Assembly (NCBI GenBank): GCA_030447525.1
Contig: JAUJOR010000003.1
Span: 62,194 to 126,193 of the forward strand
DNA from: Chloroflexota bacterium
GTDB lineage: Bacteria > Chloroflexota > UBA11872 > UBA12225
DNA: 64,000 bases
Direction: 5' to 3'
The notes beneath the pieces are model-generated. The model had not been told where the DNA came from. It worked only from the letters and a program-made list of their open reading frames with translations, and ran no database searches. This document shows positions 3,328-27,326 of the stretch, piece by piece. A program made the translations under genes and the position numbers. Position 1 is the first letter of the stretch. Each line of letters begins with the position of its first letter.

Positions 3328-3364
3328 AGGCAGCTTCGGTAGTGCCGTCGACGCCGGCTTCGTT

Positions 3365-6477: not shown

Positions 6478-6518
6478 CGGGCGGCGGCGAGGGCACCTGG
6501 GACTCCACCGTTGCAGAC

Positions 6519-6887: not shown

Positions 6888-6917
6888 CCGCCAAGCCAGG
6901 GACGGGAGCGACGCGGC

Positions 6918-7274
6918 TCAGCGGCGCGTGGTGTCGCCCAAGGGTTTCTTCCAGGCCAGACCGGCGAAGCGGCCGAAGTCCGAGTCGCTGGGCAGGATCA
7001 CTCCGGTCGCCGGCCGCGGCGACGGCGGCGGCGCGCGACGCCGACGAACGCGGGCGCCTCCAGGTCGTCGGCGAGCTGTCCCAGCTTGTCGGGGTCGATC
7101 CCCGGCCTGAGCCCGAGGGCGCGCGCCGGTGTGCGAAACGGCGTCCGCCGCGCCGGCGCGCAGACCCAGGCGGATCACCGTGTTGACCACCTGCTTGAAT
7201 GGCAGTCGCTGGCGCTCCGCCTCTTCCCGCAGCTGGGCCGCGACGTCGTCGTCGAGCGTGAGCGTCGTGCGCAT
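6918..7274 (-). pseudogene. VapB-like ribbon-helix-helix antitoxin fused in-frame to a VapC (PIN) C-terminal remnant
   Basis: N-terminus MRTTLTLDDDVAAQLREEAERQRLPFKQVVNTVIRLGL is an RHH/CopG-type antitoxin. The C-terminus VILPSDSDFGRFAGLAWKKPL resembles a VapC C-terminal tail (..tRN..DFaR.pGL..vnPw). The ~50 aa between are low complexity. No intact PIN domain appears in any frame. Confidence 0.45.
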
Positions 7275-7444
7275 GCACACATCATGATGCACCGGTGGTC
7301 AGGCATCAAGATGCCGCATTCACTCGAGACTGAGTCAGGCGTCAGCATGTGCACCGGCGTATGCGCAGCCGCGTCGACGGCCGACTGGCCAACTCTCCCA
7401 AGGCGGGATCAACCCATACTCCCTCGGTCACGCCGCCTTGCGCT

Positions 7445-7837
7445 TCACCAGCAGCCGAGCGCCACGTGCCGGGCGTTGCCCAGAGCACTTCTGCGGATCT
7501 CGTCTCGCACCCACTCGAAGCAGAGGCAGCTGACGTCGAACGGGTCACGTCGCCCGGCCGCGAGGGATCGGGCTAGCCCAAGGACGTCCGGTTCCCTCCA
7601 GTCCAGTACGTCTGTGGCGCGTAGGAATGACTCCATGGCCGCGTCTGCCGCGAGAGCCGTTGTCTGCCTCATGTCCTGACACCGGCGGGGACGCTCACTC
7701 CCGCCGGCCGAACGCCGCCGCGGCGCCGGCTGGCTGAGCATGCGTGCTACCGCAGCCATCACACCGGTGACGGGCTGCGAGAACCCGGACCGGCCCCGGC
7801 GGTACTGGGACACAGCCCACGTTGGTGAGTCGCTCAT
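7445..7837 (-). CDS. hypothetical protein, translationally coupled to the upstream ABC exporter
   Basis: Its ATG overlaps the ABC exporter TGA in a 4-nt ATGA. 130 aa, no recognised domain. Confidence 0.4.
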   Translation of the reverse strand: MSDSPTWAVSQYRRGRSGFSQPVTGVMAAVARMLSQPAPRRRSAGGSERPRRCQDMRQTTALAADAAMESFLRATDVLDWREPDVLGLARSLAAGRRDPFDVSCLCFEWVRDEIRRSALGNARHVALGCW

Positions 7838-11416: not shown

Positions 11417-11449
11417 TGATTCGTGGTAACCTGGCCCCCAGGGCTGACC

Positions 11450-12505
11450 ATGCGTGCCGACCGCTTGATCGCACTGGCGCTGCTCGTCCAGTCGCGCGGC
11501 CGATTGACGGGTCAGGAGATCGCCAGTCGGCTAGAAGTCTCGGTGCGCACGGTCTACCGGGACCTGGACGCGCTCAGCGCCGCCGGCATCCCAGTGGTGG
11601 CCGAGTCCGGTCGCGGCGGCGGCATAACGCTGCCCGACGGCTACCGCGTGGACCTGACGGCCCTCAACCAGGACGAGGCGCGCGCCCTCTTCCTGGGCAC
11701 CTCGCCGGGATCCGTGGGACCGCTGGACGCCCTGGGGGTGGGGCCGGTGCTGGACGCGGCGCTGCGCAAGCTCTCGGCGGCGCTCCCGACGACCACGCGC
11801 CACGCCGCCGAGCGCGCCCGCCAGCGTCTGCTGGTGGATCCGGCAGACTGGTGGGAAGCGCCCCCGCCCGCGCCGCCCGCCCTGCGCGCGGTGGCGGAGG
11901 CCGTCTGGCGCGAGCAGCGCCTGCGCTTCACCTACGCCCGGTGGGGACCCGGCGCCGAGGCGGCCGGCGTGGCGGGCAAGAGCGCGCAGCGGCTGGTGGA
12001 CCCCTACGCGCTGGTGGTCAAGCACGGCGCGTGGTACCTCATCGCTGCCCCCGTGCAACACTCGCCTCCCGGCATGCCGAAGCAGCCGACGGACGAGGGA
12101 CCTCCCGAGGCGCCGGCGCCCGAGCGACCGGCCGTGTTCCGCATCTCCCGCATGCGGGACGTGGCGCTCACGGACGAGCCGAGCGTGCGTGTGGCAGGGT
12201 TCGACCTGGTGGCGTTCTGGGCCGAGGCGTGCGTGGAGTTCCGCGCCACGCGCCCCAAGCTGGCGGCCCGGGTGCGCGCCACACCTGAGGTGGCCCGGCG
12301 CCTGGCACGCATCTTTGCCGGCGGCGCGCCGCTGCCGGAGCCCGATGACGATGGCCGGTGCACGCTGGCGGTGGATCTGCAGACCGAGGACATCGCCTGC
12401 CACGAGCTGCTGGGCCACGGCCCCCAGGTGGAGGTGCTGGAGCCTGCCTCGCTGCGCGACCGGCTGGCAGCCAACCTCCGCGCCGCGGCCGCCCTCTACG
12501 GGTGA
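11450..12505 (+). CDS. WYL-domain transcriptional regulator (HTH-WYL-WCX architecture, YafY/PafBC-like)
   Basis: N-terminal HTH (MRADRLIALALLVQSRGRLTGQEIASRLEVSVRTVYRDLDAL). Central WYL-like region (YALVVKHGAWYLIAAP). C-terminal extension. Confidence 0.75.
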   Translation: MRADRLIALALLVQSRGRLTGQEIASRLEVSVRTVYRDLDALSAAGIPVVAESGRGGGITLPDGYRVDLTALNQDEARALFLGTSPGSVGPLDALGVGPVLDAALRKLSAALPTTTRHAAERARQRLLVDPADWWEAPPPAPPALRAVAEAVWREQRLRFTYARWGPGAEAAGVAGKSAQRLVDPYALVVKHGAWYLIAAPVQHSPPGMPKQPTDEGPPEAPAPERPAVFRISRMRDVALTDEPSVRVAGFDLVAFWAEACVEFRATRPKLAARVRATPEVARRLARIFAGGAPLPEPDDDGRCTLAVDLQTEDIACHELLGHGPQVEVLEPASLRDRLAANLRAAAALYG

Positions 12506-12687
12506 CTCGATGCGACGGCTTCGCCGGCTGACCACCGGCAAGAAGACGCCGCCAGGGTTGCCAAGCGTCGATCGGGTGAGGCGAGCAACAGTCACTGGTA
12601 CCTTGAGCGCCGTCCGATAGCCCGCGCGACGGCCACCACCGCTCCAGCAGCCACAATGGGGCAACGCATACCGCGCCGGAGGAGCCC

Positions 12688-12947
12688 GTGGCGAAGAGCG
12701 ACCAGGGGGAGTTGATTGCGGCGGAACTGACGGTGGCCAGGACACAGGACGGCGTCACGCACAGCGGGGCCGTGTTCCGTCCCGCCGGCTCCGCCAATGG
12801 CGGTGGGCCGCAGCCGGTCCCGGTCGTGTGGGTGCGCGGTGGCGGCCAGAACTTCTATTGCCCCTCGTACCTGCGGATCGGCCGGGCGGTGGCGGCGCTG
12901 GGCCACCCGTTCCTCAGCGTGAACACGCGGGGCCGCGACATCGCGGC
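12688..12947 (+). pseudogene. alpha/beta (dienelactone-type) hydrolase N-terminal fragment truncated by an IS insertion
   Basis: VFRPAGSANGGGPQPVPVVWVRGGGQNFYC...FLSVNTRGRD resembles the N-terminus of an esterase or hydrolase. The frame runs directly into an IS left end at ~12948. Confidence 0.35.
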
Positions 12948-13196
12948 TGGAATAACCCCGCCTTGGTGGACGCCCTCACACGAGGGGGCAAGAGGCTCCG
13001 AAAGAAGGGAGTCCGGACCGATGGGAGCGAGGACGAGACCGCCGTATCCGCCGGCGTTCCGTGCTGAGGCCGTGCAGCTGGTGCACGCCAACGGGCGGTC
13101 GTTGGGCCAGGTGGCCAAGGACCTGGGGTGCACCACCAGACGCTGCGCCGCTGGGTCAAGCAGGCCGCTCTTGTGAACACCGCCTCCCACTCCTGA
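12948..13196 (+). mobile_element. IS3-family insertion sequence remnant (left end plus frameshifted 5' part of orfA)
   Basis: Left-end-like sequence TGGAATAACCCCGCCTTGGTGGAC is followed by an ATG at 13021 encoding PPYPPAFRAEAVQLVHANGRSLGQVAKDLG, an IS3 OrfA HTH. A 1-nt frameshift is needed to continue into HHQTLRRWVKQAA, after which the element is truncated. Confidence 0.5.
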
Positions 13197-13358
13197 GCAT
13201 CCGAGAGCAGCAGTCGGTCGCTCCCCGCGCGGCGCTCCCTCACACCGAGCGTTGTACCGAACGCGAGCCGGGCCGAGCCGCTGGCGCCGCGCTACCGGCA
13301 TCACCTTCGGACCGCGCCAGCGACTCCGCTCCGTCCGTAAGCGTGGTTCTGCGCGCTG

Positions 13359-13600
13359 CTAGCGGTAGCGTCCCGCCTGCATTTCATAGAGCTCGGCGTA
13401 GCGCCTACCGAGTGCCACCAGCTCATCGTGCCTCCCCGCTTCGACGATGCGCCCGCCCTCCAACACGAGAATCTGGTCGGCCATCCGCACCGTGGAGAAG
13501 CGGTGGCTGATGAGAAGCGCGGTCTTGCCGGCCACCAGCTCGCGGAAGCGGTCGAAGAGCCGGTACTCCGCCTCGGCGAGCTCACCGCCGAGCGCCTCCC
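13359..13600 (-). pseudogene. ABC transporter ATP-binding protein C-terminal fragment
   Basis: Only the last ~75 aa of an ABC ATPase remain: KTALLISHRFSTVRMADQILVLEGGRIVEAGRHDELVALGRRYAELYEMQ (H-loop, D-loop region). No Walker A or signature motif lies upstream. Confidence 0.45.
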
Positions 13601-13659
13601 GCCCCGCCGCCCCCGCCAGAACCCGCGCCAGGTCCGCCGCAAGATGAGCAACTACCCCC

Positions 13660-13893
13660 TCAAGCGTCCGCCACCGGCTTCGCCGTCCGCGGCGGGGGCG
13701 CCGCTTGCCCGTCTGCGCGGGCCGCCTCCAGCCAGCTCTCGATCGCGTCCTGGGCGTTCCGTCCCGCCTCCTCGTAGGTGCGGCCATGCGTGCGGCAGCC
13801 GGGGAGGTCCGGCACGGTCACCACGAAGATCGCGTCGTCCGGATCCCACTCCATCGTCACCGAGTACCGCGCCGGCTGAATTGTTGCCGCCAT
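13660..13893 (-). CDS. hicB: type II toxin-antitoxin system HicB-family antitoxin
   Basis: YSVTMEWDPDDAIFVVTVPDLPGCRTHGRTYEEAGRNAQDAIESWLEA is the HicB/UPF0150 fold signature. 77 aa. Confidence 0.7.
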   Translation of the reverse strand: MAATIQPARYSVTMEWDPDDAIFVVTVPDLPGCRTHGRTYEEAGRNAQDAIESWLEAARADGQAAPPPRTAKPVADA

Positions 13894-14125
13894 CTCCCGC
13901 TGCTCCCCGTTGCTCCTTGCGGCCCTCGGCCGCGCGCGCCCGCGCGAGCCCCTCCTGCACGTCCCGTTCCTGGTAGCGCTTGGCGTCGTCTCCGTCGCCG
14001 CCGCAGGGCGTGAGGCGCTCCGGCAGCAGCGGGTGACTCCACATGGTGTGACTCCCCTTCCCGGCCCGCTCGCTGAAGCCCGCGCGGCGGAGGGCGGCCT
14101 TGAGCTCTCGGATCTCCGGCGGCAT
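13894..14125 (-). CDS. hicA: HicA-family mRNA interferase toxin (reading frame lacks a stop before hicB; possibly frameshifted or fused)
   Basis: MPPEIRELKAALRRAGFSERAGKGSHTMWSHP matches the HicA N-terminal core. The frame stays open to 13652 through the whole of hicB in another frame, so the native C-terminus is unclear. Confidence 0.45.
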
Positions 14126-14252
14126 GCGCCAACACGTCCATGATACGCCCAGGCCCGACGCCCCGGTGGATCGCCTCCCCGGGCGTGGCACGAGCGGCCC
14201 GCGTCCCCACGACTCGGCGCGGAGACGGTGAGCGCCTGCAGGTCGTGCGCGG

Positions 14253-14418
14253 AACTACACCTTGACCGTGCCGGTCACCCCTGACGCATGAACCTGCGGC
14301 CGACACCGGCCGACTCCCGGATGGGCGCGTCTCTTTTCACCGCACTGCTCCATGGCCCTACGGGCCACCACCGACGGGGGAAAGCGGCACCACAGGCGCT
14401 ATTTTCGGAGCACCACGC
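14253..14418. repeat. direct repeat copy 1 (~166 bp); second copy at 24451-24617
   Basis: The two copies differ by 2 substitutions and 1 single-base indel. The unit contains short GC hairpins (GACCG-TGC-CGGTC and GGCCG-ACAC-CGGCC) and ends with GCGCGTCTCTTTTCAC. Confidence 0.85.
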
Positions 14419-14641
14419 CTCCCGGATCTTGCGTGCTCCGGCTGGGCTGGCGCGGCCCCTCCGGTTCGGTCGCGCTGGACGCCTCGCATCGCCGAGCTGC
14501 GCCAGCACGTGTCGGCGCATGTCCGCCCATGACCATCCCCGTGCAGCGCTCTTCGCCCAGGACGATCGGAATGCGGCGCTCGTTCGGCCGGTGTCGATTC
14601 CGGTGACGTCCATTTGTTTAGTGTGTGGAAAGGAGCACCCC

Positions 14642-15532
14642 ATGTCCGCAGCCTCGTCAGCCACCGCATCCGCCGCCTCACGGCTCAAGCCGCACCCCCT
14701 TCTCGCCGGTCTCGTCGTCGGCGAATCCCCCCGCTGGCACGACAGCCGCCTCTGGTTCGCCAACTGGGGCGCCCAGGAGATCGTCGCCGTGGACGCCAAG
14801 GGCATCAGCGAAGTCGTGGCCCGCGTCCCCACCACCGTCCCCTTCTGCATCGACTGGCTCCCTGACGGCCGCCTGCTCGTCGTCTCTGGCCAGGAGGCCC
14901 GCCTCCTGCGCCGCGAACCCGATGGCTCTCTCATCACCCACGCCGATCTGAGCGCTCTCTCGAGCGGCCCCTGGAACGAGATCGTCGTTGATTCCCGCGG
15001 CAACGCCTACGTCAACAGCATCTGCTTCCGCTTCGGCGAGGAAGACTTCCGCCCCGGCATCATCGCCCTGGTCACCCCGGAAGGCGCCGTCCGCCAGCTG
15101 GCTTCCGATGTCGCCTTCCCCAACGGCATGGTCATCACCCCGGACGGCAAGACGCTCGTCGTCGCCGAGTCCTTCGCCGGCCGCCTCACCGCATTCGACA
15201 TCGCCCCGGATGGCTCGCTCTCCAACCGCCGCGTCTGGGCCGAGGTCGGCGGCGACGGCATCTGCATGGACGCCGAAGGCGCCATCTGGTGCTCCGTCGT
15301 CCACGATGGGAGCCCCGCCGCCCTCCGTGTCCGCGAGGGAGGCGAGGTGCTGGACCGCATCCCCCTCGAGCTCCCCTGCTTCGCCTGCGCCCTCGGCGGC
15401 CCGGACGGCACGACCCTCTTCATGCTCGTCGCGGACTGGCAGGGCATAGAGAACATGGACGCCCTCTTCCGCAGCCGCACCGGCCAGCTCCTCGCCGCCA
15501 CCGCCCCGGCGCCGCGCGCCGGCCGCCCATAG
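14642..15532 (+). CDS. SMP-30/gluconolactonase/LRE-like region family protein
   Basis: 296 aa with six-bladed beta-propeller hydrolase motifs ([45 protein letters not shown]). A strong RBS GGAAAGGAG precedes the ATG. Confidence 0.7.
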
Positions 15533-15552
15533 GATAGGAAAGGAAGCAGCCC

Positions 15553-15924
15553 ATGAGGCAGTACCTGCTCACCATCTACCAACCGGATGGCCCTCCCCCA
15601 CCGCCCGAGCTCCTGGACCCCATCATGCGCGACGTGGACGCCTTCATCCAGGAAGCCAAGGACGCCGGCGCCTGGGTCTTCAATGGCGGGCTGCACCCAC
15701 CCAGCACCGCCACCGTCGTCCGCCTCCAGGACCCCAGCCACCGCGGGGACGGCGAGCTCCTCATGACCGACGGCCCCTACGCCGAAGGCAAGGAGCACGT
15801 CGGCGGCTTCATCATCGTGCGCGCGCCGGACCTCGACGGCGCGCTCGCGTGGGCGTTGAAGCTGGCCCGCGTGCTCCCCCTCCCCATCGAGGTCCGCCCC
15901 TTCCAGGACGACGCCGCGAGCTGA
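15553..15924 (+). CDS. YciI-like (YCII-related, DGPF) domain protein
   Basis: 123 aa, [13 protein letters not shown]...[29 protein letters not shown]. It sits immediately upstream of the ECF sigma factor gene. Confidence 0.75.
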
Positions 15925-15926
15925 GC

Positions 15927-17165
15927 GTGGGCGTGACTGCGCTCCCCAAGCCGGAGATCGAGCGTGTCTTCCGCGAGGAGTACGGCCGCGTCGTCGCCAT
16001 TCTCGTCCGCATCTGCGGCGACATCGACCTCGCCGAGGAGGCGGTCCAGGACGCCTTCACGGTTGCCCTCCAGCGGTGGCCCTCCGAGGGACTCCCACCA
16101 AGCCCGGGCGGCTGGATCATCACCACCGCCAGGAACCGGCTCATCAACCAACTCCGGCGCGAGGCATCACGCCAGGACCGCCACGCCCAGGCCGCCCTGC
16201 TCCAGACGCTGCATCATGGTTCCCCAGAAGCCGAGGAGGGCGCCGTGCGCGACGACCGCCTGCGCTTGATCTTCACCTGCTGCCACCCCGCGCTCTCGCC
16301 CGAGGCGCGCGTTGCCCTCACCCTGCGCCTCCTGGGCGGCCTCACCACCGCCGAGATCGCCCGCGCCTTTCTTGTCCCCGAGCCTACCATGGCCCAGCGC
16401 CTCGTCCGCGCCAAGGGCAAGATCCGCGATGCCCGCATCCCCTACCGCGTCCCCGCGGACTCGGAGCTCCCCGCCCGCCTGCCCGCCGTCCTCGCCGTCG
16501 TCTACCTCATCTTCAACGAGGGCTACGCCGCCAGTTCCGGGGACCGGCTCATCCGCGAAGACCTCTGCGCCGAGGCCATCCGCCTCAGCCGCCTCCTCGC
16601 CCAGCTCATGCCGGACGAGCCGGAAGTCCTCGGCCTCCTCGCCCTCATCCTCCTTACGGAAGCCCGCCGCGCCGCGCGCACCGATCCAGACGGCCAGCTC
16701 GTCCTCCTCGCCCACCAGGACCGCGCCCGCTGGGAGCGCCCCCTCATCCACGAAGGCCAGTCTCTCGTCCGCCGCTGCCTCCGGCTCAACCGCCCCGGCC
16801 CGTACCAGCTCCAGGCCGCCATCAACGCCGTCCACAGCGACGCCCCCACCGCCGGGCAGACAGACTGGCGCCAGATCCTCCAGCTTTACGACCAACTCCT
16901 CGCCGTTGCCCCCACGGCCATCGTCGCCCTCAACCGCGCTGTCGCCGTCGCCGAGGTGGAGGGCCCCACCGCCGCCCTGGCCCTCGTAGACGCCCTGGAC
17001 CTCCACTCCTATCACCTTTTCCACGCCATCCGCGCCGACCTCCTCCGCCGCCTGGGCCGCCGCTCCGAAGCAGCCGAAGCCTACGACGCCGCCATCGCCC
17101 TCACCCGCAACGCCGCCGAGTGCGCCCTCCTGCAGCGCAGACGGGACGCGCTCGACGCTACCTAG
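15927..17165 (+). CDS. RNA polymerase sigma-70 factor, ECF subfamily, with a long C-terminal extension (ECF42-like)
   Basis: GTG start 2 nt after the YciI stop. Sigma-2 region [30 protein letters not shown] and sigma-4 [36 protein letters not shown] are followed by a ~200-aa helical extension. Pairing with YciI is typical of ECF42. Confidence 0.75.
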
Positions 17166-17178
17166 CCGAGGGTCGGTC

Positions 17179-17222
17179 ATAAATACGCCGCGGCCGCTTG
17201 ACGGCGGCCGCGGCGTATTTAT
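17179..17222. terminator. bidirectional intrinsic terminator: perfect 19-bp stem with A/T-rich flanks
   Basis: ATAAATACGCCGCGGCCGC-ttgacg-GCGGCCGCGGCGTATTTAT lies between the convergent sigma-factor gene (+) and methyltransferase gene (-). Confidence 0.7.
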
Positions 17223-17377
17223 GAGTTGCTCCGGTGGTTCGCTGGGTGTGAGAACCGGTCAAGCCGCATGCGCGATGACCGGAAGGACTTTGCCCGCCCC
17301 GCAACGGAGCATCGATGCCCGTATGCGTGGTTCGTGATCCGGTGCGTGGGAGGCGCCCGGGCATGCTTGGCTTCCCA

Positions 17378-17968
17378 TCAGTGTCCACGCGGTTCGGAGG
17401 CCGCTGCCACCGCCGCGGCGGCGCGGGGCATCACCAGCAGGGGCCAGAGGCAGGTGGTCAGCGATAGGCACTTCCCCACCGTATGCGCCCCGAGCAGTCC
17501 CAGGCGCTCTCCCAGCAACCCCCCGGCGAGTGCGCTCAGCGGCAGCGCGCCCCAGCCCACGAACCGGATGGTGGCGCTCACCTGCCCCGCGACGGCCACG
17601 TCCACGCTCCCGTCGGGCAGCGGCAGCGCCTCTGCGCTCCCCTGCAGGACATCGACGTCCGGCAGCACCGCGCGGAACTGCTCGCGCATGGCCGCCACAG
17701 GCTCCACGGTGACGATCCTCGCCCCCGTCCCCAGGAGCTGGCGGGTCAGCTTGCCCGTGCCGGCGCCGACGTCCACCACGCGCGTGCCGGGCGTGATGCG
17801 CAGCGCTTCCACCAGCATCGCGACGGCTTCAGGAGCATAGCCGGGCCGGCTCCGCTCGTAAGAGGTGGCAGCAACCTGGTAGCCCTGGGTGGCGGGGTGG
17901 ACGCCCACCGGGTCATCGTAGCAGCGTCGCCTCCCCACGTGCGCCAGGGCGAGGGAGGCTGTGCCCAC
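17378..17968 (-). CDS. class I SAM-dependent methyltransferase
   Basis: Motif I VVDVGAGTGKLTRQL with post-I acidic residue and motif II/III region (DVDVLQGSAEALPLPDGSVDVAVAGQ). Confidence 0.6.
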   Translation of the reverse strand: MGTASLALAHVGRRRCYDDPVGVHPATQGYQVAATSYERSRPGYAPEAVAMLVEALRITPGTRVVDVGAGTGKLTRQLLGTGARIVTVEPVAAMREQFRAVLPDVDVLQGSAEALPLPDGSVDVAVAGQVSATIRFVGWGALPLSALAGGLLGERLGLLGAHTVGKCLSLTTCLWPLLVMPRAAAAVAAASEPRGH

Positions 17969-18049
17969 GATGCTTCATCGCTCTCTAACAGGAGCGGCCC
18001 AGGAGCGCTGCTGGCGCCCCTTGGGGCCGGCGCCTATGATGTGCGCTCG

Positions 18050-18859
18050 ATGGCCGCCGCTGCACGCAGCCTGGCTCCACGCGACGCAGGTGATCCTGGG
18101 TACTACGTCCGGCACCTCAGTGCGATCAATGGGCTGGAACAGACGAGGGGCTACAAGCGCCGCACGCTGGAACTGCTCGGGGTCGCCCCTGGGCAGCGCG
18201 TCCTGGATGTGGGCTGCGGCGCCGGCGACGAGGTGCGCGCGCTGGCCCGGCTCGTCGGGCTGTCCGGGCAGGCGACCGGGATCGACGCGGGCGAGGCGAT
18301 GGTCGCCGAGGCCCGGCGCCGCGCCGTCGCCGAAGGGAGCACGGCGCGCTTCGCGACGGCCGACACCGCCCGGCTGCCCTTCCCGGACGCTCGTTTCGAC
18401 GGCTGCCGGGCCGATCGTGTCCTGCAGCACCTGGCCGATCCGGCGTCAGCGGTGGCGGAGATGGCACGGCTGGTAAGGCCCGGGGGCCGGGTGGTGCTCG
18501 CCGAGCCGGACTGGGAGACGTACGTCGTCGACGCGCCCGACCGCGGCCTTACCCGCCGTATCCTGAACGCCCGCTGCGACCGCTTCCCCAGCGGCTGGGT
18601 CGGGCGGGGCCTGCCTCGGCTACTCCGCGCCGCCGGGCTCGAGGTGCTCGCCGTGCAGCCCATGACGGCCGTCCACACCCGCCTGGGCGAGGCCGACGCG
18701 GTGGGCATCCTGCGCGCCAGCGCGGCCCGCGCCACCGCCGACGATGCGATCTCCGCCGTCGAAGCCGATGCGTGGATCGCGTCCCTGGAGCGGGCCGACC
18801 GCGACGGGCACTTTCTCGCCGCCGGCACGCTCTTCATCGCCGCTGCCTGCAGATCCTGA
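18050..18859 (+). CDS. class I SAM-dependent methyltransferase (Methyltransf_11/25-like)
   Basis: Motif I VLDVGCGAGDEVRALAR and motif region FDGCRADRVLQHLADP, VRPGGRVVLAEPDW. The start was chosen at the ATG after the antisense overlap with the divergent methyltransferase ends. Confidence 0.6.
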   Translation: MAAAARSLAPRDAGDPGYYVRHLSAINGLEQTRGYKRRTLELLGVAPGQRVLDVGCGAGDEVRALARLVGLSGQATGIDAGEAMVAEARRRAVAEGSTARFATADTARLPFPDARFDGCRADRVLQHLADPASAVAEMARLVRPGGRVVLAEPDWETYVVDAPDRGLTRRILNARCDRFPSGWVGRGLPRLLRAAGLEVLAVQPMTAVHTRLGEADAVGILRASAARATADDAISAVEADAWIASLERADRDGHFLAAGTLFIAAACRS

Positions 18860-19423
18860 ATGGCGGTCGGACGATACGCCCCCACCCCGCGCCTCTGGGG
18901 CGGCCAGGTCGCGGCATCTGTGGCCATAGACGCGAAGAAACAGAACCATGCTTCCAGCACGGCAGCGACACGCGATCTTCGTGGCGCAGGCGCTCGACGC
19001 CCTCGGCGCCACCTCTGCCTCGTAGCACGTCACCATTGCGGTCCCATGTGAGGGGCGATTCGTCTCCAACGACGCCGTTGCCGGCGGGCCGCCACAGACA
19101 ACAACCAGGCTTGCCGCCATTCAGGCGTCTTCCGCATGACAATCGAACTGCTTCGGAGAGCCTGGTGTCAGCAGGCTCCCAGAAGGCTTGTTATCAGACT
19201 CGGCTGAGGTTGAGAGATGACTCCGTGCACCCACGAGGAAACGTCGCTGAGCGCCAGGAGCAGGTCGCCCGGCCGGCGTGAGAGAACCTGACGCGGGGCT
19301 CGCAGTTGATCCACGGCCAGCTGCCGAAGCGCCGCTCAGCGGCTCGGCGGCCTCATCCGCGCCCACGGGGTCGCCACTGGCAGAGCCGGATTCTGGACCC
19401 TCTGGTCGGTAGACTCGCGGACG

Positions 19424-20425
19424 ATGTATACCCATCTGGGCAGTGTGACGTTGAAGACTGGCGAGCAGATGGAGCTAGGGGTGGTGCGCTGCCCCGATCC
19501 ATCCTGGGCGCGGCAGATCAAGCCGTTCCTGAGCCACAAGGGACGCGAGACCAAGGACTTCTTCGACGCGGCCTTCGAGCGGCCAATGGACGGTCTGGAA
19601 ACGCGCTTCTACGTTGGCACCATCGGCGGGCTGCTGGTGACCAACGTGATGGTCGCCGGGGCGCGCGGCGCGGGCATCCTGGGGCACGTGTACACCGCGC
19701 CGGAGCACCGGCGGAAGGGCGCCTATGGCCAGCTGATGCCGGTGCAGATGGCAGACACCCAACGCGCCGGGTTCCGGGCCCTCACGCTGGGCACCGGCTT
19801 CGAGACGCATGCGTACCGCATCTACCACGGGAACGGGTTCCGGAGCATCGACGGGACGTCGGGGCGCATGAAGTGGCTGGCGCAGCCAGATGTCGAGGCG
19901 CGGTACTTTCGCTCGGGTGCCACTTCCGTCAGACCGGCGCGCTGGGACGACTGGGGACCGCTGAACCTGTTGACCTACCAACCGGTCCAGGCCGGCGAGG
20001 AGCTCCCCCGCTCCTGGAGCTTCCGCGTCAAGGGGCAGGGGAGCTTGGAGGGCACCTTTCAAGCCCTGCAGCGGGACATCATGCGCCAGACGCCGATCAC
20101 GCCCCTGGCGCTGGAGAGCGAGCACGGTGCCACCGTGGGTTGGGCAGTCCTCCAGCCGGACAACGTTGCCTTCGGCGAGGGCTGGCTCCTCGACCTCTAC
20201 GTGCATCCAGGTTGCGCCGGCGATGCCGGCAAGCTCCTGGACGCCGTGCCGTGGCCGGATCAGGGCCGCGTGGCCGCCTACACCGCCGGTCCGGAGGGGT
20301 ACCGTACGGCTGCGCTACGCGACTTCGGCTTTCGGCCGATCGCGGAGCTGCCCGACTGGCTCCAGGTGAGCGGGAAGCCGGCGCCGCTGCGAGTGCTAGC
20401 GCGGGGGCAGATGCTCCGAGATTGA
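19424..20425 (+). CDS. GNAT family N-acetyltransferase (tandem GNAT-like halves)
   Basis: Acetyl-CoA binding motif HRRKGAYGQLM. 333 aa. Confidence 0.65.
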   Translation: MYTHLGSVTLKTGEQMELGVVRCPDPSWARQIKPFLSHKGRETKDFFDAAFERPMDGLETRFYVGTIGGLLVTNVMVAGARGAGILGHVYTAPEHRRKGAYGQLMPVQMADTQRAGFRALTLGTGFETHAYRIYHGNGFRSIDGTSGRMKWLAQPDVEARYFRSGATSVRPARWDDWGPLNLLTYQPVQAGEELPRSWSFRVKGQGSLEGTFQALQRDIMRQTPITPLALESEHGATVGWAVLQPDNVAFGEGWLLDLYVHPGCAGDAGKLLDAVPWPDQGRVAAYTAGPEGYRTAALRDFGFRPIAELPDWLQVSGKPAPLRVLARGQMLRD

Positions 20426-20581
20426 CACGTTAAGGGGCAGCACACTGTAGGACGTGGCGTCCTTGGAGGCACCTCAGCGTACGCGCCCACGGCGCGGCAA
20501 CAGCACCACCACGAAGCGCGCCTGCCGCATCGAGGCGACGAGAGCGGAGTAGAATCAGGACCGGAGGAGAGACGCCGCGCG

Positions 20582-21295
20582 GTGACTACACGGAGATGGA
20601 TGCTCGCCGCATCGCTGCCGGCCGTGCTTGGCACCGCCGCTTGCGACGCGTCCGCCACCGTGCCATCGGCAACGGTTGTGACCGGTCCAGCGACGATCAA
20701 GCTCACGACGACGTGGACGTCGGGGATGCGTGGCACGGTGATGAAGGAGCTGATCGGCCAGTTCCAGCAGGCACACCCGCAAGTTACGGTCGAGGAGCAG
20801 GTGGTGACGCCGGCCCCCGGCTCAAGCTATGCCGACGCGGTGTTCGTGCAGCTCCCCACCGCCTCGGCCGCGGACGTGATCCAGGGCGACCCCCAGACGA
20901 TGCCGAGGACCGGCAAGAGCCTTCCGGTGATCAACGACGAGCCGCAGATGGTCTACGGCCAGTCCAGGGCGGTAGACGCGGCGTTCCAGTGGGTCAAGTT
21001 CACGGCGAGTAAGGACGTGCAGCTCAAACTTGCCACCACATCCGGGCGCGGTGTGATCCCGTCGCTCAAGAGCGTGGCGAGGAGCGATGCGTGGCTGGGG
21101 CAGTACCCGGACCTCAAGAAGGTGACGATCGAAGCATCCGAGAAGGCGGTGACGCTCCCGTTCCACGGCAAGTACCAGCGCTGGCAGACCGCCATTCAAG
21201 CGGGCGCCGCGCGGGCATTCCGCGGCGAGCTCTCGGCACGCGAGGCGATGCTCGAAGCGACGCGCGAAGGAGACAAGATCCTCGCTGGCCAGTAG
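20582..21295 (+). pseudogene. ABC transporter solute-binding protein with a large internal deletion
   Basis: Signal peptide with lipobox (MTTRRWMLAASLPAVLGTAAC). SBP N-terminal strand (KLTTTWTSGMRGTVMKELIGQFQQAHPQVTVEE) and SBP C-terminal helices are present. It is only 237 aa against >400 for the family, so the central part is missing. Confidence 0.45.
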
Positions 21296-21614
21296 CGGCC
21301 TGGAGCCTCCGTCCGCGTACCAGAAGCGAGTCGAGCTGCCAAACGGCAAGCTCAACTCGCAGATCTGGGTCAGGCTTGTCGACGGTTCGGAAGAGCTGGC
21401 GGCGCACGGCCCGGCGTCTGCGCCGCAGCACGTCACGCTGCCGGATGGCGGGCACCTGATCGTCTTCCGTACCGATACGCTCAAGGCCCCGCCAAGGCCG
21501 CCTAACGGTCACTCCTGGACGGCCGAGGAAGGCTACCCGGCGGCGCGCGAGGGTGGTGGCGCCTCAGTCGGCTACGCTTACCGTGGTGGGGACGGAGCGT
21601 GGCGACGCGGGTAC

Positions 21615-22412
21615 GTGGCACGCGCCCGCGAAGTCATCATGCGCGATCGGATGGAGCAGGACGCCTGTACCGGGCGGCTCTACCCCGCCTTTGAGTTTCT
21701 TGGTCTGCCGTCGCTCGTCCAAGACGAGCATGGCGTGCCGTGGTGCTTCTGGCGCAATCCGCTCCGCCGCCACACGTACCGCGCCCGCTGGCTCGGGCCG
21801 GCCTTCGGCTTCAGCACGCCGGTCGAAGCGACACGCGCCGGGTACGCGCTGACCGAAGAGGTTCCCACCGAGCGCCCGGTCCAGGTGACGCTTGACACGT
21901 CGTCCCCAAGGCGTGTCCTATTCGCGGACCTGCTCGTCGTCGCCGAGCTGCGCGGCGTCGAGCTGCGGATGGGCCGGCGCGCGTGCGGGTCAGCGCCGAC
22001 GGACCGGTATCGTGCGAGCCGATCTCGATGGACGGCGAATCGATGTCTGAGCTGCCGGCGCAGGGGAGCTTCCGGCTTCGCTTCGGCCTACACTCGCACG
22101 CGGCGAAGCTCTATTCGTTCCGGTTCGAGCAGTCGTGAGCGTCGCCCTCATCTACGCGCCTGCCCGCGTGCCGCCGTGAAGCTCCACGCCACTCATGGCC
22201 AGGTCGAGCGTCGCGAAGCTGTCCACCAGCGACGTGAGGCGCCGCTGGCGCACGAGCTCGCGCAGTCCCATCTCTACCGACCTGCATCTGATACCTGTAC
22301 GGACGGCGCGCAGCTGCCAGTTTTGGGCGAGCCGCCGGGCATGGGGCCGCGTGGGGACCTTTGTGGACCAGACGACGTTTCGACGACCGCGGGCGGCGGG
22401 GTGAAGCGGTGA
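21615..22412 (+). CDS. hypothetical protein, probably frameshifted
   Basis: Protein-like N-terminal 160 aa (RLYPAFEFLGLPSLVQDEHGVPWCFWRNPL). The C-terminus turns into an Arg/Ser-rich run after ~21950, while the +2 frame gives a protein-like ending (RVRVSADGPVSCEPISMDGESMSELPAQGSFRLRFGLHSHAAKLYSFRFEQS, stop at 22139). Confidence 0.25.
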   Translation: MARAREVIMRDRMEQDACTGRLYPAFEFLGLPSLVQDEHGVPWCFWRNPLRRHTYRARWLGPAFGFSTPVEATRAGYALTEEVPTERPVQVTLDTSSPRRVLFADLLVVAELRGVELRMGRRACGSAPTDRYRASRSRWTANRCLSCRRRGASGFASAYTRTRRSSIRSGSSSRERRPHLRACPRAAVKLHATHGQVERREAVHQRREAPLAHELAQSHLYRPASDTCTDGAQLPVLGEPPGMGPRGDLCGPDDVSTTAGGGVKR

Positions 22413-22413
22413 C

Positions 22414-23619
22414 GTGAACGCCAGTGCAACTGTGGCTCCCGAGTTGCGGCGGATCATCGAGGTCCTGCTCTCGGCGCGCTATGGCATGCCCCTCCGAGTG
22501 ACCGGGGTAGAGGGGTTTCGGCCGCATCAGGTGTCGCGCTGCACCCTGGCGCCGGTCGCTGGAGATGCTCCAGACGTCCCGCCGACTGTCATCGTCCGAG
22601 TCCTGCGAAGCGATCCTGCCCGGTCCGATCCGGCCCGCCTGCTCAACGAGCAGGCGGCTCTCGAGTTCCTGGCCGCGATCGGCAGCGCGGTCGCCCCGCG
22701 CTTCATCGTGGGAGATGCCGCGGCGGGAGTCCTCGTCAGCGAGGATCTGGGTTCCCACCCGTCGCTGCTCGACGTCCTGCTCGGCAGTGACGGGGCAGCC
22801 GCGCGCGAGGGGCTGATCGCGTTCGCGCGCGCCCTCGGAAGACTGCACGCCGACACGGCCGGGCGCGCGGTGGACTACCAGGCGCGCCGCGTGGCCCTGG
22901 GCCCGACCGCCGCCGTCGCCAGCGCTGACCCGGAGGCCGGCGCCTCGGTCGTCCACAGCTGGCAGGGTGTCCGCGCGGCCGTCGACCAGCTGGGGCTCCC
23001 CCCTCCCTACGGCGTCGATGACGACGTGGAAGCGGTCGCCGCCGCGCTGGCGGCGCCCGGTGACTACCTGGCGCTGTCCAGCGGAGACCCGTCCGTCGTC
23101 AACTGCAAGGTCGTGGGTGGGAGGGTGCGCCTCTTCGACTTCGAGTCGGCGGGCTTCCGGCACGCGCTCATCGACGCCACGGTCCTGCGCTACCCCTACC
23201 CCACGGGTGGGCCGGTGTGGCGCCTGCCGCGGGAGGTGGGCGACGCGGCCGAGCGGGCGTACCGCGACGAGCTGGAACTCGCGTGCCCTGGGGCGAGGGA
23301 CACGCCCGGCTACGAGCGCGCCCTGGCCGCGGCGTGCGCGGCGTGGACCATCCTCAGGCTGGTCCGACTCCAAAGGGTGGAGGCGGGCCCCGACCGCGAG
23401 CCGTGGCGCCTCCTGCCCCCCGGGTGGGCGGCGCCGGTGCCCGAGCGCTCGCGCCGGCGCCAGCTGGTCTCGATCATCGAGACGTGCGTCGCGTCTGCGC
23501 GACACGCGGGCACACTCGACAGGCTCGCCGCGTGGTGCGTGCGCGTGGCGGGCTCGCTGCGCACGCGCTGGCCAGAAGCGATCGAGGAGGATCCCCTGTA
23601 CCCTGCGCTTACGACGTAG
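22414..23619 (+). CDS. phosphotransferase enzyme family protein (APH / protein-kinase-like fold)
   Basis: 401 aa. N-lobe present. Catalytic-loop-like GDPSVVNCKV (D and N retained, His replaced). DFE metal-binding motif LFDFESAGF. Confidence 0.6.
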   Translation: MNASATVAPELRRIIEVLLSARYGMPLRVTGVEGFRPHQVSRCTLAPVAGDAPDVPPTVIVRVLRSDPARSDPARLLNEQAALEFLAAIGSAVAPRFIVGDAAAGVLVSEDLGSHPSLLDVLLGSDGAAAREGLIAFARALGRLHADTAGRAVDYQARRVALGPTAAVASADPEAGASVVHSWQGVRAAVDQLGLPPPYGVDDDVEAVAAALAAPGDYLALSSGDPSVVNCKVVGGRVRLFDFESAGFRHALIDATVLRYPYPTGGPVWRLPREVGDAAERAYRDELELACPGARDTPGYERALAAACAAWTILRLVRLQRVEAGPDREPWRLLPPGWAAPVPERSRRRQLVSIIETCVASARHAGTLDRLAAWCVRVAGSLRTRWPEAIEEDPLYPALTT

Positions 23620-23708
23620 CGGCCCTGCAGCTCTGCGGCCCCTGTGCCGAGCGGCGGTTGGGGGGGGCAGCCAGTTCCGCCCCGGCGTGGGCGAAGGCGC
23701 GCAGGGCC

Positions 23709-24284
23709 GTGGCGCGCTGCGCACGCGCTCGGCCACAGTATCGTGGCGGGGGTGGCAACGGCTACCTGTACGCGCTGGGTGGCAACGACTGCCTCGTCGT
23801 GGAGTGCGCGGCCACGGGCGCGCGTCACAACGTCTCCTTCCGCGGCCCCCAGACGAGTGGCAACGTGCTGCTCCGCCTCGTCCTGCGAGACGGGCTGCAC
23901 GCCGCCGACTCCCACATGCAGCTGAGCGTCGCCAACCTCGTCGACAGTCCTTCTCTCGACCGGGAGTACCTTGAGGCGGCGTACCGCCCCTACGGCGATA
24001 TCGAGCACGGGCAGACCATCAGCCAGAGCGTCTTCTGGAACGTCCGCGGCGAACGGCCGTACCGGCACATGCGCCTGCCGGTGGCGGTGATCTCGCAGCA
24101 GTTCGGCTGGGGCTACGTCATCGGCACGAGCGGGCCGTGCTCGGGAGTGACCGTGCCGAGCGGGAGCGGCACCGAGCCGGTCGACCATGTGGAGGGGCTT
24201 GGCGAGGGTGAGGGGCTGGTCCCCCGATCGCTCTACGAAGACGAGCTCTCCCACCGCCTTGACCGGCTCAGAGGTGCAACGTAG
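23709..24284 (+). CDS. hypothetical protein
   Basis: GTG start. 191 aa with W/Y/F-rich composition (SQSVFWNVRGERPYRHMRLPVAVISQQFGWGYVIGTSGP). No domain recognised. A 338-aa antisense shadow ORF overlaps it. Confidence 0.3.
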   Translation: MARCARARPQYRGGGGNGYLYALGGNDCLVVECAATGARHNVSFRGPQTSGNVLLRLVLRDGLHAADSHMQLSVANLVDSPSLDREYLEAAYRPYGDIEHGQTISQSVFWNVRGERPYRHMRLPVAVISQQFGWGYVIGTSGPCSGVTVPSGSGTEPVDHVEGLGEGEGLVPRSLYEDELSHRLDRLRGAT

Positions 24285-24450
24285 AACACGTAGCTCGCAA
24301 ACCATGCTTGGGAAGCACGAGTTCACCGGCTTCGTCTACCGATCTGAGGGCGACGCTCCCGTCCCGCAAGCGGGGAGGCGGCGCTCCCCGGCGTGCGCTT
24401 CGACCGCGCGAGGCGACTCCACGGGAAGTGGCACTGGGTAGCCTACGACT

Positions 24451-24617
24451 AACTACACCTTGACCGTGCCGGTCACCCCTGACGCATGAACCTGCGGCCG
24501 ACACCGGCCGACTCCCGGATGGGCGCGTCTCTTTTCACTGCACTGCTCCATGGCCCTACGGGCCACCACCGACGGGGGGAAAGCGGCACCACAGGCGCTA
24601 TTTTTGGAGCACCACGC
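24451..24617. repeat. direct repeat copy 2 (~167 bp); first copy at 14253-14418
   Basis: See copy 1. It lies ~280 bp upstream of the HExxH protein gene. Confidence 0.85.
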
Positions 24618-24897
24618 TTACATTCGCTGGCCCAGGCGTGCCAAGGAAGGTGAATGGTTCCGAGAAACTGCGGCTGTTGGTGCGGTCAGGTGGGCGTGGC
24701 GCTGCCGCCCGGCCGCTGCGTCGCGCTCGTCCTCTACGGCACACCCTCCACGATCCGCTCGCAGGAACGGCGTGACTCAGAATGCTTGGCGCAATGCGTC
24801 CTCCGGCTCGATCCACCACCGGGGCCTACGTGGCGTAACGCGCCCTCCAGGCGCCCCATTCCGGCCGTACACTGGCGCGGGATCGGAGGCGAAGGCG

Positions 24898-25863
24898 ATG
24901 GATGCCCCCAAGTGGACCAGCTGGACGATCGGCGTCACCGAGATCGCCAACCGCTTCCATGTGGTCAACAACCTGGCCTCGTGGAACGTCTCGGCGCGCC
25001 CGCACTACAACTGCGCTTGGATCGAGGAGACCGGTCCGCTGAGCGCAGCTGAGCGAGAGGCGCTGGACGCAGCTCGCGAGGTCTTCCCGCGGTACGGAGG
25101 TGGGCCGAGCGCCGTGTGGGGGGCGTTCATCGCCGCCCAGGACGAGGCTGACGCCTGGGCCCGCGCGGCGCGGCTGGTGACGAGCGAAGATCTCCAGACG
25201 CTCCGGCAGGCGATGGCGACGCTCGGGCCGCGGTTCCGCCTGCTGTGGGAGCGCGATCGGCCACGCCTCGAGACCGTCCGGGAGCGGCTGGAGCCGGCGC
25301 TGCGCGCGCCGGGGATTGCCGAGGCGGTGGCGAAGCTGGGCCGCTACCTTGCATCCGCAGCTCCGAGTGTACGGATCGAGCTGCTGATGAGCCGGGGCAG
25401 CGGCTCCGCCGGCGGGGCCAACGGCGGGCGGATCACGCTGGAGGTGCAGGAGTGCGATGACATGGCCGAGGCGGCCGACGTGGTGGTGCACGAGCTGGGG
25501 CACTTCATGGAGCGGGCGCACTTCCTGCCGCGCTACCGGTCGCTTGCCGAGCGGCACCGCCTCCTCGAGCGGCGTGGCGCGCCCGGGTGGGACGCGTTCG
25601 TGCTCGTCAAGGAGGCCCTGCACCTGTCCCTGTGCCCCAGCGGGTGCCTCAGCCCGCTGTACGGCGTCCCTATCCGCGACCACGCCGGGGACGCGACCCG
25701 GGCGCGCGGGGCCGGCTACCCTCGCCAGGCGGGGCTCCTCGAGCTGACTTCCCTGGTGCTGCCGCTGGTGCGCGAGTATCTGGACCCGGAGCGGCCGGTG
25801 GACGACGCCCTGCTCGCGTCCGGTATCGCCGCCTTCGAGGCCAATCCCCACACGCTCGCCTGA
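24898..25863 (+). CDS. hypothetical protein with an HExxH zinc-metallopeptidase-like motif
   Basis: RBS GGAGGCGAAGGCG precedes the ATG. 321 aa. VVVHELGHFMERAHFLP contains HELGH followed by a downstream E/H. Confidence 0.5.
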   Translation: MDAPKWTSWTIGVTEIANRFHVVNNLASWNVSARPHYNCAWIEETGPLSAAEREALDAAREVFPRYGGGPSAVWGAFIAAQDEADAWARAARLVTSEDLQTLRQAMATLGPRFRLLWERDRPRLETVRERLEPALRAPGIAEAVAKLGRYLASAAPSVRIELLMSRGSGSAGGANGGRITLEVQECDDMAEAADVVVHELGHFMERAHFLPRYRSLAERHRLLERRGAPGWDAFVLVKEALHLSLCPSGCLSPLYGVPIRDHAGDATRARGAGYPRQAGLLELTSLVLPLVREYLDPERPVDDALLASGIAAFEANPHTLA

Positions 25864-25883
25864 CGCGGGGCGCGAGGGAGCAT

Positions 25884-27038
25884 CTACCTCCGCCCGCCGG
25901 CCAGGCTCTCGCCCGCGATCTTCGGGACCGGCCCAGATCCCCGGCGACGCAATCGGTGAGGCGGCAGGGGGTCGCCGGCGAGATTGGCTTCGCGGGCGCG
26001 CTGGGCGGCGAGTCGACGGTACTCGGGACTGAGGCGCTTGAGCGCCTGGTGGGCCTCGTGCTTCACCTGCGGACTCGGGTCGCCGCGCAGGGCGGCCTGG
26101 AGCACGTCGCAGGCAAGCTGAAGGTAGGGCGCGTGACCGAGTCGCTGCGCGGCGGCGACGCGCACGTGCGCATCTGGGTCGTGTTCGGCGATGTGCGCCA
26201 GCAGGGGCAACACGTCTTGGCCTCGGAGCCCCCCTACGGCAGCGCGCCGCACCAGTGCGCTTGAGTCTTCGAGCGCCGCCTCCCGGAATGCTGCCTGCAC
26301 CATCGGGTCATCTGCACGATGACCGAGCGCCTGCGCCGCGGTCCAGCGAACGCGCCGGTTGGCGTCACCCCGGAACAGCTGAATCAGCAGCGGCTGCACG
26401 TCCAGCTGGAGTGGCTCCGGCTTGCAGCGTTCGCACATCAAGGCGTGGAGCGCGCCGCGCCGGACGTCGGCGTCAGGGTCGTGCAGCGCCACGTGCGTGA
26501 GCTGGGGCACGCACGCGTCGGTGGCGTGATGATCGATGAAGCCGAGCGCGGCCCCGCGGATGCGCGCGTCCGGGTCGGACAACGCCTCCAGCGCGACGCG
26601 CATGCCGGAGGGGCCGGCGGCGGCCAGCGACTCCATCGCGCGTCGGCGCGCAGACCAGTCGATCGGCCGCTCGATGGCCCGTTGGAGCAGGGTCCGCAAT
26701 GGCGCCAGCTCGACCGCTTGACGCAAGCGCGTCCAGCTCGGGAAACCATGCTCCCGTGCGATGACCAGCTGCGCCTGGGACAGCGTGAGCGCCCGGGCGG
26801 CCTGTGCCGCCGGCCGTTGGGAGGGGGCGGGCGTCCCTGGGAAGCAGCGCTCCAGCCGCGCCTGGGCGGCCGAATCGCCACGCACCACCGCGGCCAGCAG
26901 CTCCTTTGCTTGCTTCCTCAGCTGCTCCAGAGATGGCTGCGGCGGCAGCGCGCGGGCGGCCGGCGGCGAGGGCTGAGGTGTAACCGGAACGGGCGGGGGC
27001 AACGACGGCGGGGCGAGTGGTGCGGGCTGTGGGCCCAC
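25884..27038 (-). CDS. HEAT-repeat (PBS-lyase-like) protein
   Basis: Repeated DPDARIRGAALGFI / DPDADVRRGALHAL / DPDAHVRVAAAQRLG units. Pro-rich N-terminus. GTG start with RBS AGGTAGG. Confidence 0.55.
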   Translation of the reverse strand: MGPQPAPLAPPSLPPPVPVTPQPSPPAARALPPQPSLEQLRKQAKELLAAVVRGDSAAQARLERCFPGTPAPSQRPAAQAARALTLSQAQLVIAREHGFPSWTRLRQAVELAPLRTLLQRAIERPIDWSARRRAMESLAAAGPSGMRVALEALSDPDARIRGAALGFIDHHATDACVPQLTHVALHDPDADVRRGALHALMCERCKPEPLQLDVQPLLIQLFRGDANRRVRWTAAQALGHRADDPMVQAAFREAALEDSSALVRRAAVGGLRGQDVLPLLAHIAEHDPDAHVRVAAAQRLGHAPYLQLACDVLQAALRGDPSPQVKHEAHQALKRLSPEYRRLAAQRAREANLAGDPLPPHRLRRRGSGPVPKIAGESLAGGRR

Positions 27039-27208
27039 GGGACACCTACCTTTCTTGGTGGCCCAATGTCCGCGTCGCAGGCCGAAAGGAGGTCGGTTGT
27101 GGCACGGTAGCCAGAGGCAGCCTTGGGTGGGCTCTGCCCTTCCCGCGGACCGGCGGCGCCCCACGCGCCATACTGATTGTAGAACGTCGGGGCCCCAACC
27201 GTGCCCCC

Positions 27209-27326
27209 GGGGCTTTGCCCAAAAAGTCCGCTGAGACACCAATCGGTGGATTGCGCCCAGGTTAGCGTTGCCGCTGCTGGCGCTGTACTTACGCGCTACT
27301 GGCACATGTTGGGCAAAGCCTGCCCC
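27209..27326. promoter_or_regulatory. 12-bp inverted repeat GGGGCTTTGCCC ... GGGCAAAGCC(tg)CCCC flanking ~90 bp in the HEAT/hen1 divergent intergenic region
   Basis: The arms could form a long-range stem in a leader RNA or serve as paired protein-binding sites. Confidence 0.3.

Follow-up and report, generated by a model that had tools for sequence, protein, structure and literature searches.

Direct repeats of 100-200 bp can flank integrative islands as attL and attR; miniature inverted-repeat transposable elements (MITEs) are small, non-coding, intergenic and present in near-identical copies; repetitive extragenic palindromes (REPs) and the palindrome-associated transposable elements (PATEs) derived from IS200-IS605 have no terminal inverted repeats and no target-site duplication, and carry short perfect hairpins near one end; the riboswitches, leaders and small RNAs of Rfam lie upstream of genes and on the same strand; and filler DNA, or dispersed segmental duplication at microhomology junctions, is low-copy, non-coding and sharply bounded. 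Here we analyse a pair of 166-nt direct repeats in a 64-kb stretch of the chromosome of an uncultured Chloroflexota bacterium (contig JAUJOR010000003.1; 70.3% G+C; hereafter the window), whose two copies bracket a 10-kb block of genes. The repeat is called the unit and is numbered 1-166 on copy 1; the places occupied by copies 1 and 2 are sites 1 and 2. We read the pair as the product of a recent duplication, low in copy number, of ordinary non-coding DNA within a mosaic region prone to rearrangement, and give this reading a probability of about one half.

The two copies (14253-14418 and 24451-24617) are identical at 164 of the 167 columns of their alignment (98.2%; E = 5e-79 by blastn and nhmmer) and lie in direct orientation. 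They differ by C/T transitions at unit positions 89 and 155 and by the length of a G-run at 124-128, which has five residues in copy 1 and an extra, sixth G in copy 2; the unbroken runs of identity are 88, 34, 30 and 12 nt long, and a raw repeat listing splits the pair at the 1-nt indel into 14253-14383/24451-24581 and 14376-14418/24575-24617. The flanks of the two copies are unrelated, with identity falling to background at all four ends. No third copy, even a diverged one, was found in the window by blastn or nhmmer with all filters off, and a repeat search returned the pair as the sole long repeat there. The right end of copy 1 is 223 nt from the ATG of an SMP-30-type lactonase gene at 14642, which has AAGGAG 7 nt upstream; the right end of copy 2 is 280 nt from the ATG at 24898 of a gene for a HExxH protein; and the left end of copy 1 is 127 nt from the ATG at 14125 of hicA on the opposite strand. 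An earlier reading of this DNA (the original prediction) had described two near-identical non-coding segments, the only long repeat in the window, at these distances from the three genes, and in all of this it was borne out.

That the pair is an artefact of assembly, a collapsed or mis-joined duplication, had been named there as a way in which the observation might fail, and it is barely credible. The copies differ at three positions, and an independent k-mer assembly, the Logan contigs of run SRR24765285 (k = 31; 99.97-100% identical to the window), holds both junctions of copy 2 together with its private variants and breaks at the 31-mers that the copies share. Logan contig L004 (window 17392-24480) stops 30 nt into copy 2, which is k-1 for k = 31, and L001 (window 24549-27237) begins at the first 31-mer with the sixth G private to copy 2. 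These break points are what a k = 31 graph gives at a two-copy repeat with such variants, indicating a genuine repeat and not a collapsed duplication.

Short contigs of close relatives were reached through protein cluster look-ups at >=90% identity; L016, L017 and L014 come from run SRR22405833, L018 from a sister sample and L015 from SRR22405819. L016 aligns to window 11968-12711, continues with 72 unrelated nt and then resumes at 14461-14492 and 14543-16045, with 96.5-96.9% nucleotide identity. It is without window 12712-14456, that is, an unknown open reading frame (ORF), an ABC-transporter fragment, hicBA, copy 1 and the 38 nt to its right, and the alignment places the WYL regulator gene of this relative directly beside its lactonase-YCII-sigma operon. 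The 72 nt unique to L016 were considered as the remnant of a deleted unit and rejected, as they show no similarity to it. L017 and L018 (95-96%) cover window 16499-19030, with 580 extra nt inside the minus-strand methyltransferase gene, and L014 (93-94%) covers window 21962-22278 and 23707-24467; L014 has an intact 541-codon Pect-lyase_RHGA_epim gene (1352-2977), of which the window keeps the last 191 codons. Between 12.7 and 25.9 kb there are at least 12 homology breakpoints with respect to the relatives, about one per kb, plus several gene fragments. What is shown, then, is that the repeat exists and is absent from site 1 in a close relative, and that the backbone of the 10-kb block is ancestral and occupies the same chromosomal place there.

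Since the backbone is present in L016, L017 and L014, the repeats did not bring in the block. The pair has the direct orientation, close identity and abrupt ends that would suit attL and attR, or the products of Campbell-type recombination, at the borders of a 10.2-kb element carrying the genes from the lactonase to the pectate-lyase-like gene, but this reading is highly improbable given that the relative has the backbone at the same position, with the WYL gene adjoining the lactonase gene and no left repeat. Further, a Pfam scan of called ORFs (14.4-24.4 kb) found no integrase, transposase or recombinase in the block, the composition of the block is the same as that of its flanks, the unit is non-coding and the window contains neither a tRNA nor a tmRNA. 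The original prediction had proposed that the pair might be scars of a duplication or of an integration by which the intervening genes arrived. Its first alternative is close to the explanation favoured here; the second is contradicted by the presence-or-absence comparison that it had itself recommended, which found the backbone in a relative of about 97% identity, and by the lack of mobility genes and of a distinct composition in the block, and of a tRNA or tmRNA target in the window.

At site 2, homology with L014 (93.7% over 762 nt) extends without interruption into copy 2, covers its first 17 nt and then stops (AGCTACACTTTGACCGT against AACTACACCTTGACCGT), and it is implausible that a match at 15 of these 17 positions arose by chance. 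Judging by these orthologous bases, copy 2 (at any rate its left end) probably already existed before the split from this relative. Copy 1 is probably younger, because a relative of about 97% identity does not have the unit at site 1, and the identity of the two copies (98.2%, against 94-97% for orthologous DNA) agrees with this. Past its junction, over positions 3162-7530, L014 has 71.5% GC for the first 370 nt and then enters a 54%-GC island, which encodes HD, HARE-HTH/AAA, methyltransferase and SIR2_2 proteins of defence-like character and is absent from the window. Two candidates in this L014 DNA were rejected: a CGGCCG-N4-CGGCCG hairpin, seen by eye and considered as a sign of a diverged unit, is not significant (P = 0.17), and an ORF beside the junction considered as an IS5/DUF4096 transposase has no Pfam support.

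At site 1, the hicAB cassette and 137 nt of upstream DNA recur in L015 (88-94%) in another context. Homology with L015 ends 10 nt inside copy 1, between unit positions 10 and 11 (10|11), and is followed by 57 unrelated nt (AACCACGCCT against AACTACACCT); at the outer end of hicAB, L015 reads GGAACCACGCCT and the window GGAACTACACCT, with eight matches in ten to unit positions 1-10. On the other side, CTCCCGGAT at 14419-14427, directly to the right of copy 1, repeats unit positions 62-70 as read from the sequence, and may be the footprint of a template switch.

We therefore favour a recent local duplication with the following course. Copy 2, in the spacer between the pectate-lyase fragment and the HExxH gene, would be the resident and older of the two; 166 nt of this spacer would have been copied into the 1.75-kb patchwork between the WYL gene and the lactonase-YCII-ECF-sigma operon (ECF, extracytoplasmic function); and the copied piece would have been joined to the outer end of hicAB at the 10-nt microhomology, by illegitimate recombination or by template switching. 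We infer both the direction of copying and the microhomology-mediated mechanism from the arrangement of these sequences, and the unit presumably has no function; none needs to be assumed.

Several points weigh against this duplication. Both breakpoints fall at the first perfect hairpin of the unit, that of L015 at its foot (10|11) and that of L014 in its loop (17|18), which random duplication of a patch does not predict; at an estimated one breakpoint per kb or thereabouts, the coincidence of the L014 breakpoint lying 17 nt from the repeat edge has an estimated P of roughly 0.02-0.03. Folded as single-stranded DNA (ssDNA) with DNA parameters, the unit beats its shuffles (z = -3.9). None of the relatives found has the unit intact at site 2, so that the resident status of copy 2 rests on 17 nt; the duplication does not account for the 38 nt to the right of copy 1; and the copy count of two is that of the 64-kb window.

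The clustering of breakpoints would be explained by a different origin, in which a lineage-specific insertion site, att-like or a hot spot, lies at the left end and first hairpin of the unit and has received both the hicAB-bearing patch here and the low-GC island in the relative; or the unit may be the conserved end of a small non-autonomous element moved in trans. Three junctions (the repeat edge, L015 at 10|11 and L014 at 17|18) lie within 17 nt of the left end, the L014 DNA changes character past its junction from GC-rich sequence to the low-GC island, and both copies are intergenic and 98% identical. However, this clustering comes from two breakpoints only; no recombinase, integrase or transposase is present in the visible 4.4 kb of the island, in the 1.75-kb strain-specific insertion that ends with copy 1 (patch A, Table 1) or in the block; and there is no significant core repeat at the other end of patch A (P about 0.1-0.17), the att-like direct repeats considered as its flanks having been dropped for the same reason. 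Nor does the unit have the ends of a transposable element. It has no terminal inverted repeats, its ends AACTACACCTTGACC... and ...GGAGCACCACGC not being complementary and a repeat search giving no inverted pair at them, and no target-site duplication, copy 1 being flanked by GTGCGCGG|...|CTCCCGGA and copy 2 by CTACGACT|...|TTACATTC. Neither site has a clean empty counterpart: the stretch missing from L016 is 1,745 nt long, not 166, and is replaced by 72 unrelated nt, and L014 shares 17 nt with copy 2 and then diverges. No Y1 (HUH) transposase or RAYT gene occurs among the annotated ORFs of the window, an annotation that is not exhaustive.

Searches of public collections by exact words and blastn likewise gave no copy of the unit. 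A 23-mer from its 5' end had no copy in 185,579 GTDB species genomes, two internal words had none in JGI metagenomes and two words had none in IMG/VR, the exact-word matches being chance hits in unrelated DNA (L002, L003, L012 and L013); blastn of the unit against plasmids and phages gave no match; a stop-free translated frame of the unit found only low-complexity matches among 1.84 billion protein representatives; and about 128 kb of fetched loci contained no copy. Taken with the lack of a clean empty site, these results leave the att-like site or mobile end, the main rival to the duplication, an unlikely origin. A bolder form of the idea, in which the TGACCG-TGC-CGGTCA left end is an undescribed Chloroflexota recombination site and the unit a portable landing pad instead of a passive duplicate, is to our minds decidedly doubtful; were it true, accessory DNA would have been inserted repeatedly at the left hairpin, hicAB here and the SIR2/HD/methyltransferase island in the relative.

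Elements with the hallmarks of MITEs are present in this lineage. One lies in the window at 27211-27320, between the HEAT-repeat gene and hen1; it is 110 bp long, with 17-bp inverted ends (GGCTTTGCCCAAAAAGT and ACATGTTGGGCAAAGCC) and a 9-bp target duplication (TGCCCCCGG), and Logan contig L001 ends inside it at 27237, as expected if it is multicopy. A second element of the same end family, 1.25 kb long, occupies L015 155-1402, on the upstream side of hicA; its inverted ends are perfect over 18 bp (GGCTTTGCCTCAAATGTC), its target duplication is 9 bp long (GCGATCCAC), and it carries a gene for an AadA_C/Polbeta nucleotidyltransferase and a 49-codon ORF, with no transposase.

The position of the copies invites a further explanation, that the unit is a cis-regulatory module or small RNA gene shared by the lactonase-YCII-sigma operon and the HExxH gene. 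Both copies are upstream of plus-strand genes and in the same orientation, and the unit contains three perfect 6-bp hairpins where 0.16 are expected from shuffles, in addition to the ssDNA score given above. The first operon includes an ECF sigma gene, and a candidate GAAC-N17-CGAC string was read in the unit by eye; an ECF42-type promoter for the sigma operon was nonetheless dropped, because the proximal upstream region is conserved in a relative without the unit, and a scan for TGTCGA bearing on the same idea was uninformative. Against shared regulation, Rfam had no match at gathering score anywhere in the window and, around either copy, none in the unit even at E <= 10 (mir-939, E = 1.4, falls outside it). 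The RNA folds have z-scores against shuffles of -1.5 on the plus strand and +0.1 on the minus strand, and among 1,277 real 166-nt segments of the window the unit stands at only the 28th and 10th percentiles of ssDNA folding after GC correction, so that the hairpins of the unit are not exceptional for this genome. Neither copy has sigma-70-like promoter hexamers or, by the simple definition of a GC stem followed by a T-run, a terminator; the distances to the two genes (223 and 280 nt) differ between the copies, and so does the sequence that they span; L016 keeps the proximal upstream region of the lactonase gene (window 14457-14641), with its strong Shine-Dalgarno sequence, and is without the unit; and no collection searched held a homologue of the unit on which to measure covariation. 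A regulatory or RNA role is therefore very unlikely. Hairpins had been anticipated by the original prediction, correctly in kind though as two and not three; its GC-stem/T-tract end does not qualify as a terminator by that simple definition, and its proposal of a leader or structured RNA is opposed by the Rfam search that it had suggested, by the fold scores and by the lack of promoter and terminator in the two copies.

The unit shows no sign of coding either. It gives no codon-position GC signal, and the indel between the copies breaks every reading frame. A 32-codon minus-strand ORF that ends 2 nt from the left edge was considered as a small protein and rejected: it has no ribosome-binding site, and the copies differ there by a frameshift and a non-synonymous change.

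Table 1. Features at and around the two repeat copies (window coordinates)
Feature	Position	Strand	Remarks
WYL/HTH regulator	11423-12505		left flank, after ABC transporter genes; from Pfam
Patch A, strain-specific mosaic insertion	12712-14456		1.75 kb: unknown ORF, ABC ATPase fragment, hicB, hicA, copy 1, 38 further nt
ABC-transporter ATPase C-terminal fragment	13359-13570	minus	gene remnant in patch A
hicB	13660-13893	minus	
hicAB cassette with 137 nt of upstream DNA	13677-14262	minus	recurs in L015 at 88-94%
hicA	starts 14125	minus	stop codon lost
Repeat copy 1	14253-14418	none	166 nt; right end of strain-specific mosaic insertion; probably derived copy
First perfect hairpin	14263-14277		TGACCG-TGC-CGGTCA, unit positions 11-25
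10-kb block	14457-24450	plus	ancestral backbone with strain-specific patches 19031-21961 and 22279-23706
SMP-30-type lactonase	14642-15532	plus	
YCII	15553-15924	plus	
ECF sigma with DUF6596/TPR	15927-17165	plus	
Methyltransferase	17378-17968	minus	
Methyltransferase	18050-18859	plus	
GNAT	19424-20425	plus	
Solute-binding protein	20582 to ~21900	plus	suspected frameshift, inferred from frame plot
APH-like kinase (phosphotransferase)	22414-23619	plus	
Pectate-lyase-like C-terminal fragment	23709-24284	plus	last 191 codons
Repeat copy 2	24451-24617	none	167 nt; spacer between truncated pectate-lyase-like gene and HExxH gene; probably source copy
First 17 nt of copy 2	24451-24467		15/17 identical in L014, orthologous
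HExxH (HELGH) protein	24898-25863	plus	rare protein, downstream of copy 2

The genes around and between the copies are listed in Table 1. Within patch A, the ABC ATPase fragment is 54% identical to the window's own ABC ATPase at 9738-9842. By comparison with L015, hicA (13652-14125) has a 10-nt insertion and a T-to-A change that remove its stop codon, extending the toxin ORF from 69 to 157 codons so that it crosses hicB in another frame. The lactonase, YCII and ECF sigma genes (14642-17165) lie head to tail and adjoin the WYL regulator gene, and a 57-nt indel with respect to L016 is located at 14493-14549, in the conserved region upstream of the lactonase gene. The sigma factor combines its ECF domains with DUF6596 and TPR, which we take to be the ECF42 architecture, and the order lactonase-YCII-ECF sigma presumably resembles the ECF42/DGPF pairing known from actinobacteria. 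A TPR extension of ECF42 has been described (PMC8999054). Homologues of the lactonase at 70-80% identity number in the thousands, and those few that have a named source are from Chloroflexota or Thermomicrobiales; proteins that cluster with those of the window also bear the label Chloroflexota; more distant relatives (about 60% protein identity, L005-L010) were set aside as a comparison because they share no synteny with the window. The strongest ssDNA fold of the whole window is at 17177-17224, where a 21-bp inverted repeat without mismatch encloses a loop of 6 nt; lying 12 nt past the sigma stop codon, where two genes converge, it is probably a bidirectional terminator.

Further into the block, the minus-strand methyltransferase gene (17378-17968) has 196 codons in the window and 277 in the relatives, and past 19030 the relatives have two other methyltransferase genes in the place of the GNAT and solute-binding genes of the window (19031-21961). 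Within window 22279-24284, about 1.43 kb with the APH-like gene (22414-23619) replaces the 5' part of the pectate-lyase-like gene. The HExxH protein belongs to no family in Pfam or NCBIfam. A Chloroflexota metagenome-assembled genome (GCA_030860125.1, contig L011) is 91.6% identical over the 3' end of its gene; synteny ends 18 nt past the stop codon (25882 on), where that genome has an AP_endonuc_2 gene instead of the HEAT-repeat gene. In the window, the right flank continues with the HEAT-repeat protein, a Hen1-PnkP pair, lipoate synthesis, a 2-oxoacid dehydrogenase E2, MoaA and IlvD; the pair (27495-31590) comprises Hen1 (Hen1_L and methyltransferase) and PnkP (kinase-phosphatase-ligase), for RNA repair.

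As to consequences, the only one likely for the unit is that of a substrate for recombination: RecA-dependent deletion or circularisation of the 10.2-kb interval through the 88 nt of perfect identity is plausible, in line with the excision of the block that the original prediction had thought possible, and would remove the lactonase-YCII-ECF-sigma operon and its neighbours. Were they to recombine, the deletion product would read hicA-upstream DNA, unit, TTACATTCGC, and the circle or tandem product would read pectate-lyase spacer, unit, CTCCCGGATC. Annotating the 10-kb interval as an island would be unwarranted. The locus belongs to the chromosome of a poorly sampled Chloroflexota lineage, and breakpoints separate it about once per kb from relatives of 94-97% identity; what sets it apart includes MITEs, fragments of genes, a toxin-antitoxin cassette and, at the seams, a small non-coding duplicate. 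The repeat has little meaning beyond this locus, and would have wider meaning only if its left hairpin were a reusable insertion site.

Set against the described systems, the unit shares with attL and attR sites its direct orientation and, in L014, a foreign island that abuts its first 17 nt, but the DNA between the copies is ancestral, with neither an integrase nor a tRNA target, and the left repeat is missing from a relative that has the block. With MITEs it shares small size, intergenic placement and near-identical copies, in a genome with active-looking MITEs; it differs in having no terminal inverted repeats, no target-site duplication and no clean empty site, whereas the true elements of the lineage have inverted ends of 17-18 bp and 9-bp duplications. 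It is like REPs and PATEs in its ends and in the short hairpins near one of them, and unlike them in that two copies are known and the hairpin content is not above the genome background. The Rfam riboswitch, leader and small RNA families resemble it in upstream, same-strand position at two genes; the unit differs from them by the lack of a family match and of a significant fold, and by its absence from the orthologous site. Filler DNA and dispersed segmental duplications neither predict the clustering of breakpoints at the first hairpin nor have a mechanism that is more than inferred here. In other respects they are the closest match, as the unit is low-copy, non-coding and sharply bounded, sits at the seams between conserved backbone and strain-specific patches, has an 8/10 microhomology at the hicAB junction and a 9-nt internal string at the other, and needs no enzyme or signal; it is a new instance of a known and ordinary kind of feature.

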